Shown here piece by piece: positions 241 through 2,754 of a stretch of 2,754 nucleotides of DNA. The position numbers and the translations under genes were made by a program. Origin of the DNA: a virus (taxonomy: Duplodnaviria > Heunggongvirae > Uroviricota > Caudoviricetes). The stretch covers positions 1 through 2,754 of IMG/VR virus record IMGVR_UViG_2698536313_000022; one strand, given 5' to 3'. Every line of letters begins with the position of its first letter. Within the stretch, counting starts at the first letter, position 1. The notes beneath the pieces are model-generated. The model ran no database searches and was not told the origin of the DNA. It saw only the letters and a program-made list of their open reading frames with translations.

Positions 241-270
241 GGCAAGAAAAAACCGCCATCAGGCGGCTTG
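241..270 (-). terminator. Rho-independent terminator downstream of the zinc-ribbon gene
   Basis: Read on the minus strand: 5'-AAGCCGCC-UGAU-GGCGGUU-3' followed by UUUUUUCUU. The core is a 5-bp GC stem (CCGCC/GGCGG), extendable by G-U and A-U pairs, with a 4-nt loop and a T-tract. It lies about 64 nt after the stop at 333. The plus-strand reading has a poorer T-tract, so it is mainly unidirectional. Confidence 0.65.
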
Positions 271-608: not shown

Positions 609-1256
609 TCAAAGGGGAGGCTCTGGTAGCGGCATCCAGTGTGACGGTTTCCACGACGCACCAGGAATTATCCACCCATCATTAGCGTCAGGATGCCCCG
701 GGATGTAAGTCGCCCATTTCATTCGCCAGTCACCTTTCCTGTCAAACTCCCTGGCAACAAGAACGGCTGTTTTGGTATCCGGCATTCGCTCACTACAGCT
801 TATCCAACCATCAGGAGTTACCGGAGAGTTGCCGGGTTCTTTAATGTGCAAGCGAGGCTCACCATCTTTTGGCTCAGGCCACTGGCGCTCCATGTTGATC
901 TTCAATTTATCTTCCATAGCAACGTTAATTTCAGCATCGCTGATGCCAGCACGGCGCTGTGCATCCCACAACAGAAACTGCATATCAGCCCACTCGCTAA
1001 GATCGTCTGGTTCGGCTGCGGCTTCCAGTGCCTCTTTTGAGAGATGTTTCAGCGGACCAATGGGGCCAACGCAGCCAAATGTGGAGTCAGACCATTTGGC
1101 ATGCTCGTGGCGAATCTGTTCGCGTTCCAGTGATGCCAGCGCAATTCGTGCCAGTTCTTCCGCTTCTTCTGCTGGCAGTACAACGTTGCTACCCGGTCCG
1201 TATGTTTCGCGCCACTGCTGGATTGTCAGCAGGCGTTCTTTGGTAATAGTGGTCAT
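609..1256 (-). CDS. Phage DUF550 (dATP/dGTP pyrophosphohydrolase-like, MazG-type all-alpha NTP-PPase) / DUF551 fusion protein (215 aa)
   Basis: ATG at 1256..1254 lies 2 nt after the upstream gene's TAG (minus strand TAGCTATG), with AAGGTG 6 nt upstream. The N-terminal about 130 aa are acidic and helical (EEAEELARIALASLEREQ..., LSEWADMQFLLWDAQRRAGISDAEINVAMEDKLKINMERQ), consistent with prophage DUF550 proteins. The C-terminal about 70 aa (DGWISCSERMPDTKTAVLV...WMPLPEPP) match the DUF551 motif pattern I recall from enterobacterial prophages. Assignment is by pattern recognition, not a computed alignment. Confidence 0.75.
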   Translation of the reverse strand: MTTITKERLLTIQQWRETYGPGSNVVLPAEEAEELARIALASLEREQIRHEHAKWSDSTFGCVGPIGPLKHLSKEALEAAAEPDDLSEWADMQFLLWDAQRRAGISDAEINVAMEDKLKINMERQWPEPKDGEPRLHIKEPGNSPVTPDGWISCSERMPDTKTAVLVAREFDRKGDWRMKWATYIPGHPDANDGWIIPGASWKPSHWMPLPEPPL

Positions 1257-1258
1257 AG

Positions 1259-1450
1259 CTATTTCACCTTAATCTCAACATTTCGCAGCTTTAGCTCTAC
1301 TGGCAGGTCTGACTTTCCGGTTAATGCTAATGCGAGATTTTCTGGAGTAATGAGAGCAGTTATTGTTTTCCCCCTCGCCAGACGAATAATCATTCGTATC
1401 TCGCAATCGTCACATGCTCCCGGTCGAACAATTGAGATTTGTCCGTTCAT
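1259..1450 (-). CDS. Hypothetical small protein (63 aa), no family recognised
   Basis: ATG at 1450..1448 is preceded by a near-consensus Shine-Dalgarno (minus strand AAAGGAGAGTGAGATG, 6-nt spacer) that overlaps the last codons and TGA stop of the upstream Ead-like gene (TGA-G-ATG). Stop TAG at 1261..1259 is 2 nt before the next start. Translation MNGQISIVRPGACDDCEIRMIIRLARGKTITALITPENLALALTGKSDLPVELKLRNVEIKVK. The longer 117-aa version in the ORF track would overlap the Ead gene out of frame and lacks an RBS. Confidence 0.6.
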   Translation of the reverse strand: MNGQISIVRPGACDDCEIRMIIRLARGKTITALITPENLALALTGKSDLPVELKLRNVEIKVK

Positions 1451-1451
1451 C

Positions 1452-2222
1452 TCACTCTCCTTTGATGCGAATGCCAGCGGCGCGCTCGGCTTCACTTTGT
1501 TCCCAAAACCACTTGTGAAGCGCCATAAGCTTTTCGTCAATCGGTGCATATTTGCGATTAAAGTAGGCCTGAGCATCTTTCTCAGATTCGTCCGGTAATT
1601 CGCCAGGGCCAAACAGTGTGTTATAAATCCATGCTAGTCCGCTCTTAGCGTCGCCAGTTGCCTGCCATTCGATAATGGCAGCCTGCATGACCAGAATGTT
1701 TTTCCCGATTAACAGGTCCAGTTCTTTGTACCGGTTGCGGATGTATGCATTCTCGCTTTGTAATTTTGCGTTGCGCTTTTCTGAGGCTTCAAGTAACGCC
1801 TGCTTATCGCGTAGCGCTTCTTCCAGTTCAGCAACATGGCATTCGCTATCAATAAGGTTGTTCTCTGCTGCTTCAAGCTCAACACGCAGCTTCCCTACTG
1901 TTAGCGCAATATCCTCGTTCTCCTGGTCACGGCGTTTGATGTATTGCTGGTTTCTTTCCTGTTCATCCAGCAGTGCCAGCACGGTAGCCGGGTTAGCCTC
2001 TGCTATGAATTCAGCGTTTGCATAAGCCTGAGCATCTGATTCAATCAGGCAGTTAACATGACATTCCGCAATCACGCCACCGGGTTCTCCTTTCCATTTT
2101 TGGCAAACAAAAACTCCTGTTAAATTGCCGTGCTGGTTAACAGATGTATGCCCTACGATGTAGCTTCCTTTAGTTGCTTTCTCTGCCTTTTCACGCAGTG
2201 CCTGATAATTAATTTCGCTCAC
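1452..2222 (-). CDS. Ead/Ea22-like family phage protein (256 aa) with central coiled coil
   Basis: GTG start at 2222..2220 overlaps the upstream TGA by 4 nt (GTGA), with AGAGG 6 nt upstream. The N-terminal MSEINYQALREKAEKAT... and the ...ANPATVLALLDEQE... segment resemble conserved Ead/Ea22-like regions. A strongly heptad-like segment follows (LRVELEAAENNLIDSECHVAELEEALRDKQALLEASEKRNAKLQSENAYIRNRYKELDLL), then a distinct C-terminal region. There is no in-frame ATG until about residue 186, so the GTG start is favoured. Confidence 0.75.
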   Translation of the reverse strand: MSEINYQALREKAEKATKGSYIVGHTSVNQHGNLTGVFVCQKWKGEPGGVIAECHVNCLIESDAQAYANAEFIAEANPATVLALLDEQERNQQYIKRRDQENEDIALTVGKLRVELEAAENNLIDSECHVAELEEALRDKQALLEASEKRNAKLQSENAYIRNRYKELDLLIGKNILVMQAAIIEWQATGDAKSGLAWIYNTLFGPGELPDESEKDAQAYFNRKYAPIDEKLMALHKWFWEQSEAERAAGIRIKGE

Positions 2223-2440
2223 TTCGAACCTCTCTGTTTACTGATAAGCTCCAGATCTTGCTGGCAACTGGCACAAGTCCGACAACCCTGAACGGCCAGT
2301 CGTCTTCGTTCATCTATCGGATCGCCACACTCACAACAATGAGTGGCAGATATAGCCTGGTGGTTCAGGCGGCGCATTTTTATTGCTGTGTTGCGCTGTA
2401 ATTCTTCAATTTCTGATGCTGAATCAATTATGTCTGCCAT
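2219..2440 (-). CDS. TraR/DksA-family C4-type zinc-finger protein (73 aa)
   Basis: ATG at 2440..2438, stop TGA at 2221..2219. Translation ...ATHCCECGDPIDERRRLAVQGCRTCASCQ... aligns by eye with the F-plasmid TraR motif CEACGNPIPEARRKIFPGVTLCVECQ (CxxC-x17-CxxC plus the conserved G-P-I-x-E-x-R-R). The Shine-Dalgarno is weak or atypical (AGGGA about 14 nt upstream), so the exact start is less certain than the family call. Confidence 0.8.
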   Translation of the reverse strand: MADIIDSASEIEELQRNTAIKMRRLNHQAISATHCCECGDPIDERRRLAVQGCRTCASCQQDLELISKQRGSK

Positions 2441-2488: not shown

Positions 2489-2518
2489 GAATAATAAAAA
2501 AGGAGCCTGTAGCTCCCT
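2489..2518 (-). terminator. Probable rho-independent terminator after the 71-aa gene
   Basis: Read on the minus strand: 5'-AGGGAGC-UACAG-GCUCCUU-3' running into UUUUUUAUUAUU. The stem is 5-7 bp including one G-U, with a 5-nt loop, and starts about 20 nt after the stop at 2539. The stem is short, so strength is uncertain. Confidence 0.45.
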
Positions 2519-2538: not shown

Positions 2539-2754
2539 TCACCGTTCCTTAAAGACGCCGTTCAACATGCCGATCGCCAGGCTTAAATGAGTCGGTGTGA
2601 ATCCCATCAGCGTTACCGTTTCGCGGTGCTTCTTTAGTACGCTACGGCAAATGTCATCGACGTTTTTATCCGGAAACTGCTGTCTGGCTTTTTTGATTTC
2701 AGAATTAGCCTGACGGGCAATGCTGCGAAGGGCGTTTTCTTGCTGAGGTGTCAT
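2539..2754 (-). CDS. Hypothetical small protein (71 aa as seen; start coincides with window edge)
   Basis: ORF with ATG at 2754..2752, the last three bases of the window, and TGA at 2541..2539. Translation MTPQQENALRSIARQANSEIKKARQQFPDKNVDDICRSVLKKHRETVTLMGFTPTHLSLAIGMLNGVFKER has a basic helical N-terminal half and a hydrophobic or amphipathic C-terminal stretch (TLMGFTPTHLSLAIGMLNGVF). The upstream region is not visible, so the true N-terminus and RBS cannot be verified. Confidence 0.5.
   Translation of the reverse strand: MTPQQENALRSIARQANSEIKKARQQFPDKNVDDICRSVLKKHRETVTLMGFTPTHLSLAIGMLNGVFKER

Follow-up and report, generated by a model that had tools for sequence, protein, structure and literature searches.

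A 2,754-nucleotide stretch of Caudoviricetes DNA (positions 1 to 2,754 of IMG/VR record IMGVR_UViG_2698536313_000022), to which we refer in its full length as the window, carries on its minus strand a 215-residue open reading frame (ORF; 609-1256, with the ATG at 1256-1254 and the stop codon at 611-609). Databases name its product a 'DUF550 domain-containing protein' or a 'dATP/dGTP pyrophosphohydrolase domain-containing protein', and the question raised by the locus is what such a protein does and how much of an answer these names provide. We propose, with a probability of roughly 0.6, that it is an EaA-type accessory protein of the early-left (pL) region of a lambdoid prophage, in which a MazZ/MazG-HisE-type hydrolase is joined to an adaptor-like DUF551 domain. 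What is new in our analysis is that the protein consists of three independently shuffled modules, and that an invariant enzyme is set against a cassette-like DUF551.

The DUF550 domain is homologous to MazZ

A Pfam search with domain boundaries reported two families, and only these two, for the 215-residue protein. DUF550 (PF04447) matches residues 48-143 (828..1115, minus strand) with 140.4 bits and E=2.3e-41, over profile positions 1-96 of 97, and DUF551 (PF04448) matches residues 150-214 (615..809, minus strand) with 76.7 bits and E=2.5e-21. With gathering cut-offs of 23 and 22 bits, respectively, both scores are far beyond chance, and they bear out the ORF and the two domain calls of an earlier reading made from the sequence alone. 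That reading had placed DUF550 at the N terminus and DUF551 at the C terminus; the latter position holds, but DUF550 is central, since residues 1-43 (MTTITKERL...ARIALASL, predicted to be helical; 1128..1256, minus strand) constitute a third module. Residues 1-54 match phrog_3323 and phrog_660, the PHROGs of this N-terminal module itself. Canonical MazG (PF03819) gave no match at E<=0.1, and the tie between DUF550 and canonical MazG exists at the superfamily level only.

The DUF550 domain comprises what appears to be a MazZ-like all-alpha nucleoside triphosphate (NTP) pyrophosphohydrolase core, in which a C-terminal WPEPKDGEPRLHIKE segment is conserved. A profile built from 8 sequences of distant DUF550 members matched the solved MazZ structure of cyanophage S-2L (7ODY) with E=6.4e-14 over 94 positions; MazZ was reached by this profile only, as a direct phmmer search of the protein against the PDB returned no relative (best E=0.74, a nitroreductase). 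The two proteins are homologous over ~90 residues, with ~31% pairwise identity. S-2L MazZ, a (d)GTP-specific NTP pyrophosphohydrolase, is a tetramer of the MazG-HisE fold. Its residues E34, E35, E38, E50 and D53 bind three Mn2+ ions, R83 is located at the beta-phosphate, the partner chain supplies K76, N80 and W85, and the 2-amino group of guanine is contacted by D60 (PMC8342488). In the profile alignment, which we preferred to a plain pairwise alignment that places MazZ E38 on A76 through gap placement, metal ligands E35, E38, E50 and D53 correspond to E75, E78, E88 and D91 of the window protein, defining a putative metal-binding motif, E75-x-x-E78 ... E88-W-A-D91 (984..1034, minus strand). 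The remaining metal ligand, E34, is aligned with K74 and is the sole one not conserved among MazZ-1 homologues (PMC8342488). R83, the beta-phosphate or transition-state residue, corresponds to R124; K76, N80 and W85 to K117, N121 and W126; D60 to D98; and R94 and H95, from the C-terminal segment of the pocket, to R135 and H137. The profile match and the E-x-x-E...E-x-x-D acidic cluster together substantiate the MazG-type assignment made in the sequence-only reading.

Nine of these residues (E75, E78, E88, D91, D98, K117, N121, R124 and W126) are invariant among enterobacterial, Klebsiella-phage, actinophage and Z-phage (SH-Ab 15497) members, and the same nine are at least 90% conserved across 150 cluster representatives. 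On these sequence grounds the window protein is likely to be an active, oligomeric, metal-dependent NTP pyrophosphohydrolase. It differs from MazZ in its architecture: MazZ is a single-domain chain of 111 residues encoded in a PurZ/DatZ Z-genome cluster, whereas the window protein adds the N-terminal and DUF551 modules.

Three modules are exchanged independently

The modules of the protein have markedly different histories of variation. In 123 homologues with both domains, pairwise identity has a median of 98% for the DUF550 core and of 20% for the middle of DUF551; the latter varies in length from 33 to 65 residues, and at least 26 discrete types of it can be distinguished. In the window protein this hypervariable cassette consists of residues 160-205 (642..779, minus strand), between the anchors PVTPDGWISCSERMP and HWMPLPEPP. 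The anchor motifs W...ERMP and HW.PLP are invariant or nearly so in two homologue alignments, and the 5' anchor is a 55-66-nt block of DNA that is 91-98% identical across otherwise unrelated DUF551 genes, a pattern that would fit cassette exchange by homologous recombination. The cassette of the window is also present in stand-alone DUF551 proteins of 60-125 aa, with up to 100% identity, and on an Ea22-like protein. A diversity-generating retroelement was considered as the source of DUF551 variability and was ruled out, as the differences comprise indels, wholesale replacement and discrete types, not adenine-directed substitutions. In the E. coli ESDR8 prophage (L007:2109-3179) the eaA-type gene is replaced by three consecutive DUF551 ORFs, two of which are annotated as incomplete pseudogenes; this trio looks like the remains of recombination between cassettes, or like a pool of donors for it.

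The other two modules are mobile as well. Exchange of the N-terminal module is evident from alternative N-termini in the alignment, from its presence on a protein that lacks DUF550, and from a DNA block (1118-1256) that is shared on its own. At the same position in an E. coli O145 Stx1 prophage (L008:2311-2913) lies a gene for a 200-aa protein with near-identical residues 1-43 and a DUF551 domain, in which an unrelated segment of ~85 aa with no Pfam match replaces DUF550. Conversely, only 43 of the 150 DUF550 cluster representatives carry DUF551. Of 5426 complete E. coli genomes, 2488 (~46%) have matches to parts of the window gene, but at least 80% of its particular combination is present in only 52. 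The 'fusion' is one product of domain-level mosaicism, with no dedicated architecture. The 'fusion architecture' of which the sequence-only reading had spoken is not special: P22 EaA has the same arrangement, and free shuffling of modules yields it as one outcome among others.

The literature describes DUF551 as a portable module, carried by YfdS of prophage CPS-53 as well as by a variant of Ea22 (PMC10834534, PMC4776307). E. coli K-12 YfdS and Ea22 variant V2 of Stx phages resemble the window protein in carrying PF04448, but they lack DUF550. Deletion of yfdS is reported to cause H2O2 sensitivity, and YfdS to contribute to multicopy suppression of hda-185 (PMC4776307). When residues 141-215 were modelled alone with AlphaFold2 (AF2), they gave a small beta-rich domain with a mean predicted local distance difference test score (pLDDT) of 84 and a predicted template modelling score of 0.68, and a search of BFVD with this model retrieved nothing but further DUF551 proteins, whose phages are very diverse, with template modelling scores of 0.5-0.63.

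Such portability raises the possibility that DUF551 is the active part of the protein, and that DUF550 provides mainly a structural oligomerisation or nucleotide-sensing scaffold for which catalysis is irrelevant. The occurrence of the N-terminal module and DUF551 around an unrelated middle segment is what this explanation would predict, as are the stand-alone DUF551 genes of many prophages and the phenotypes reported for YfdS, which has no DUF550 (PMC4776307). A scaffold, however, would not need the metal ligands, the transition-state arginine or the second-chain pocket residues that are kept in very distant members, and stand-alone DUF550 proteins of ~105 aa exist in actinophages. We therefore consider a purely structural role very doubtful.

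The window gene is a P22 eaA-type gene

NCBI, ENA and UniRef already contain the identical 215-aa sequence, from 18 contigs, and the gene is an already catalogued, common prophage gene of the P22 eaA type with routine domain annotation. Its family is large, with more than 8000 close proteins in a set of 5.8 billion and 4441 clusters at 50% identity in a representative library. A tblastn search of phage genomes with the DUF550 part identified P22 eaA and its relatives at ~77% identity. P22 EaA (NP_059588.1) begins with MTTITKER..., contains PF04447 with the best score that we have seen (167 bits), and ends in PF04448 with the same anchors; its gene lies between recombination genes and xis and is followed by an Eag gene. 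Because this start, both domains and the gene position are common to the two, we assign the window gene to the eaA type. The two proteins are 53% identical over a gapped BLASTP alignment, and they differ in that P22 EaA has 317 aa, with additional linkers on both sides of DUF550, and a DUF551 cassette of another kind. The sequence-only reading had held the function to be unassayed, and a literature search for functional work on P22 eaA or EaA-type proteins agreed with it: nothing relevant, and no paper testing a lambdoid or P22 EaA-type protein, was found.

DUF550 also occurs in virulent Klebsiella siphoviruses (Webervirus), in stand-alone proteins of ~105-140 aa from Mycobacterium and Gordonia phages, and in Z-genome phages. 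Since the Webervirus siphoviruses are virulent, the DUF550 enzyme is not tied to a temperate life style. Klebsiella phage Sushi (L005:2707-3282) and ~365 Klebsiella phage records carry DUF550 with a 55% identical core and no DUF551, and the Webervirus DUF550 is preceded by a different N-terminal region of ~95 aa. 'HNH endonuclease' proteins (P0390, P0391 and P0399; 195-202 aa) in the 90% identity cluster to which the window protein also belongs (that of P0389) were examined as an alternative fusion and rejected, their sequences being unrelated to it. All that these cluster members have in common with the window is their C-terminal tail, AAGIRIKGE, which is also that of its Ea22-like ORF. The common cluster looks like a clustering artefact for which chimeric ORFs are the apparent route.

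Origin of the dATP/dGTP label

The Pfam name goes back to Acinetobacter phage SH-Ab 15497, whose DUF5664-DUF550 protein turns dGTP and dATP into the monophosphates (PMC12884076, PMC8342488). Like the window protein, this enzyme contains PF04447 with the pattern E-x-x-E...E-F/W-A-D...K-x3-N-x2-R-x-W. Unlike the window protein, it reaches no more than 33 bits with PF04447, has an N-terminal PF18909 (DUF5664) domain, lacks DUF551, and has purZ and an HD hydrolase gene as genomic neighbours; identity between the two is ~40% over only 42 aa. The 'dATP/dGTP' part of the sequence-only reading is overstated, the name coming from this distant two-domain enzyme. In phage DUF550 trees, the Z-phage enzymes form a monophyletic group of their own (PMC12884076). 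The window and 20.5 kb from the closest E. coli prophage were found to contain neither purZ nor datZ (adenylosuccinate-synthetase-like and HD-hydrolase genes, respectively), and the 215-aa protein is thus not a Z-genome pathway enzyme.

A literal interpretation of the label would make the protein a true dGTP/dATP pyrophosphohydrolase that acts on bulk pools, as in Z-genome phages, and that slows DNA synthesis by the host or a rival phage or rebalances deoxynucleoside triphosphates (dNTPs) early after induction or infection. The Pfam/PGAP name, the activities of the SH-Ab 15497 protein and S-2L MazZ, and the retention of the guanine-N2-contacting aspartate (MazZ D60) as D98 are all compatible with this. 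The lack of purZ and datZ within the window and ~20 kb around the closest E. coli match argues otherwise, as do the separate grouping of the Z-phage enzymes (PMC12884076), the merely distant relationship of the window protein to the characterised SH-Ab 15497 enzyme, and several base-side residues that are unlike those of MazZ. Draining dGTP and dATP would also be expected to harm the phage's own replication, and we regard action on bulk pools as unlikely.

A tightly packed block in the early-left region of a lambdoid prophage

The closest match in a complete genome is an E. coli prophage (L001), which covers 93% of the window at 98.7% identity. There the block is flanked by xis/torI on one side and by exo, bet, gam, kil and cIII, followed by immunity and replication genes, on the other. 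The locus belongs to a lambdoid prophage and represents its early-left (pL) exo-xis region, which in P22 goes by the name of 'ea' region, and the gene is located between recombination genes (bet/exo in the E. coli prophage, erf/abc in P22) and xis.

All family-supported ORFs of the window are on the minus strand. A TraR/DksA-type C4 zinc-finger gene (2219..2440; PF01258, phrog_54), the counterpart of lambda orf73, overlaps an Ead/Ea22-like gene (1452..2222; PF13935, E=3.7e-36) by 4 nt; then come a 63-aa ORF of unknown function (1259..1450; phrog_1222) and the complete EaA-type coding sequence (609..1256; N module, DUF550 and DUF551, with the stop codon at 609-611). The stop codon of the 63-aa ORF (1259-1261) ends 2 nt ahead of the EaA-type ATG, which has a Shine-Dalgarno-like AAGGTG 8 nt to its 5' side (1265..1270, minus strand, as read from the sequence), and spacings along these four same-strand genes are -4, 1 and 2 nt. 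Terminator-like hairpins, both assigned to the minus strand, are located upstream of the TraR-like gene (2500..2518) and between an Eag-like zinc-ribbon ORF (333-545) and a TorI/Xis-like excisionase gene (1-201); the latter hairpin is at 250..269. They lie outside the packed block only and bracket the genes from TraR to Eag. In a lambdoid pL operon, hairpins of this intrinsic-terminator type would be read through by N antitermination. Given the tight same-strand packing and the position of the hairpins, co-transcription of the 215-aa ORF with the TraR-like gene is a reasonable inference, and the TraR-like neighbour to which the sequence-only reading had drawn attention does belong to the same block. 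The window also includes a truncated phrog_303 ORF (2539-2754, minus strand).

This neighbourhood brings a further candidate substrate into view. The protein could be an Atd1-type (p)ppGpp 5'-pyrophosphohydrolase that clears the alarmone while its TraR-like neighbour takes the ppGpp/DksA site on RNA polymerase. Atd1, a phage MazG-like anti-defence enzyme, is reported to deplete (p)ppGpp (preprint 10.1101/2022.06.09.495361); it resembles DUF550 in belonging to the phage all-alpha NTP pyrophosphohydrolase superfamily and in being proposed to manipulate host nucleotide signalling, and it is set apart by its catalytic domain, which is of the canonical MazG type and comes from a phage of Pectobacterium. 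Location in one packed block with a TraR/DksA-type gene would suit such a role, lambda Orf73 being reported as a TraR homologue that reprograms host transcription (PMC9239242), and the guanine-type aspartate is kept as D98. DUF550, however, is not of the canonical MazG family, the linkage to TraR is unspecific in a mosaic region whose neighbours change freely, and a cyanophage MazG is reported not to hydrolyse magic-spot nucleotides (PMC6850273). We judge this explanation quite unlikely, and removal of (p)ppGpp, or of alarmones or signalling nucleotides in general, by the 215-aa protein is speculation.

Several other features of the region were observed. The Eag-like ORF has a CxxC...CxxC zinc ribbon with sub-threshold matches to Lar restriction-alleviation and HVO_2753-type zinc-ribbon families, and lies in the most AT-rich stretch of the window (GC 0.355-0.38). 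The 63-aa ORF also matches weakly the C-terminal end of a 'DNA methyltransferase' PHROG; it is missing in the closest E. coli prophage and present in the O145 Stx1 prophage (L008:2916-3107). Residues 145-243, in the C-terminal half of the Ead/Ea22-like protein, match the PADLOC model 'DpdH' (PDLC02890) with E=1.4e-36, and the DpdH-similar segment is here carried by an Ea22-type coiled-coil protein. DpdH is part of the Dpd 7-deazaguanine DNA-modification and defence cluster. The TorI/Xis-like protein matches the PADLOC model mad1 (mads_1) with E=7.6e-14, which probably reflects a generic likeness to excisionase or AlpA-type helix-turn-helix proteins. For the 215-aa protein itself, PADLOC matched no defence model and an NCBIfam scan returned no model; an Rfam scan of the window gave a chance miRNA match only (E=0.23).

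Discussion

Homology to MazZ, residue conservation, genomic context and shuffling are directly observed, and on this basis we propose that DUF550 would be a MazZ/MazG-HisE-type, divalent-metal-dependent (Mg/Mn) nucleoside triphosphate pyrophosphohydrolase. By analogy with S-2L MazZ, it may assemble as a dimer of dimers in which each active site is built from two chains, and may have a purine-type (d)NTP or some related 5'-polyphosphorylated nucleotide as its substrate, with a monophosphate and pyrophosphate as products. Because the phage has ordinary DNA and no PurZ or DatZ, and a drain on dGTP and dATP would hurt its replication, the target seems less likely to be bulk dGTP or dATP than a nucleotide that is non-canonical, such as a purine dNTP that has been oxidised or deaminated, or regulatory, such as (p)ppGpp. 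DUF551, for its part, appears to be an autonomous small beta domain, as an identical cassette occurs stand-alone, on Ea22, and beside a middle module other than DUF550, and its fixed ends would let the variable core be swapped by recombination. Its most likely role would be that of a binding or targeting adaptor, several copies of which could be displayed by the oligomeric enzyme core. Catalysis, oligomeric state, substrate class and the adaptor function are, in this proposal, inferred.

Several observations weigh against an enzyme with an attached adaptor. The AF2 model of the full-length protein, based on 34 close homologues, has a mean pLDDT of 56.7, with values of 35-60 in the enzyme domain, where residues 29-123 are helical, and a Foldseek search of the PDB with this low-confidence model found no match at E<=0.001. 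The fold and the site geometry of the enzyme domain are consequently assigned from sequence homology; the AF2 alignment comprised very similar homologues only, and an obligate oligomer may model poorly as a monomer. On the base side of the pocket, I12, I16, N20, K31 and I56 of MazZ are replaced by H52, S56, F60, H71 and F94. The metal and phosphate half of the predicted site is kept and, because several base-side residues differ, base specificity is not transferable from MazZ. The 'dATP/dGTP' family name comes from a distant enzyme whose second domain has a relative that is active alone: the DUF5664 protein of Arthrobacter phage Wayne is by itself an active dNTP pyrophosphohydrolase (PMC12884076), so the SH-Ab 15497 result taken alone is no proof of catalysis by DUF550. 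Since other prophages have an unrelated middle module, the frame formed by the N-terminal module and DUF551 does not need the enzyme. The structural search with DUF551 yielded no informative relative, and an adaptor role is a guess from variability. As the cyanophage MazG reported not to hydrolyse (p)ppGpp illustrates (PMC6850273), alarmone hydrolysis is not general to the superfamily. Finally, the catalytic activity of EaA-type proteins is a prediction from sequence.

A bolder proposal is that EaA-type proteins are modular enzymes for manipulating hosts or rivals, in which the hypervariable DUF551 acts as a 'specificity cassette' that directs or switches on the almost invariant MazZ-like hydrolase. 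We consider this improbable. The DUF551 cassettes, of at least 26 types, would recognise variable proteins of host defence or of competitor phages, and recombination at the fixed anchors in the DNA would reassort them, in a way that resembles the behaviour of target-recognition domains in the specificity subunits of type I restriction systems. DUF551 would then represent a new family of phage-encoded binding domains driven by an arms race, and the enzyme would act on a nucleotide with a part in defence or regulation, for instance (p)ppGpp or a toxic analogue of a nucleotide that the host produces.

The interest of the locus is modest, and lies in the substrate question and in the way an invariant enzyme contrasts with a hypervariable cassette. 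This contrast provides a simple handle on what DUF551 binds. The functional label of the gene is a name copied from a distant enzyme of a Z-genome phage, and knowing the nucleotide of the non-Z DUF550 clade would correct or confirm thousands of annotations. The exo-xis region is reported to influence lysogeny and the induction of Shiga-toxin prophages (PMC3824215, PMC4699033), and the substrate of non-Z DUF550 could show by what means temperate phages adjust the alarmones or nucleotide pools of their host when they decide between lysis and lysogeny.

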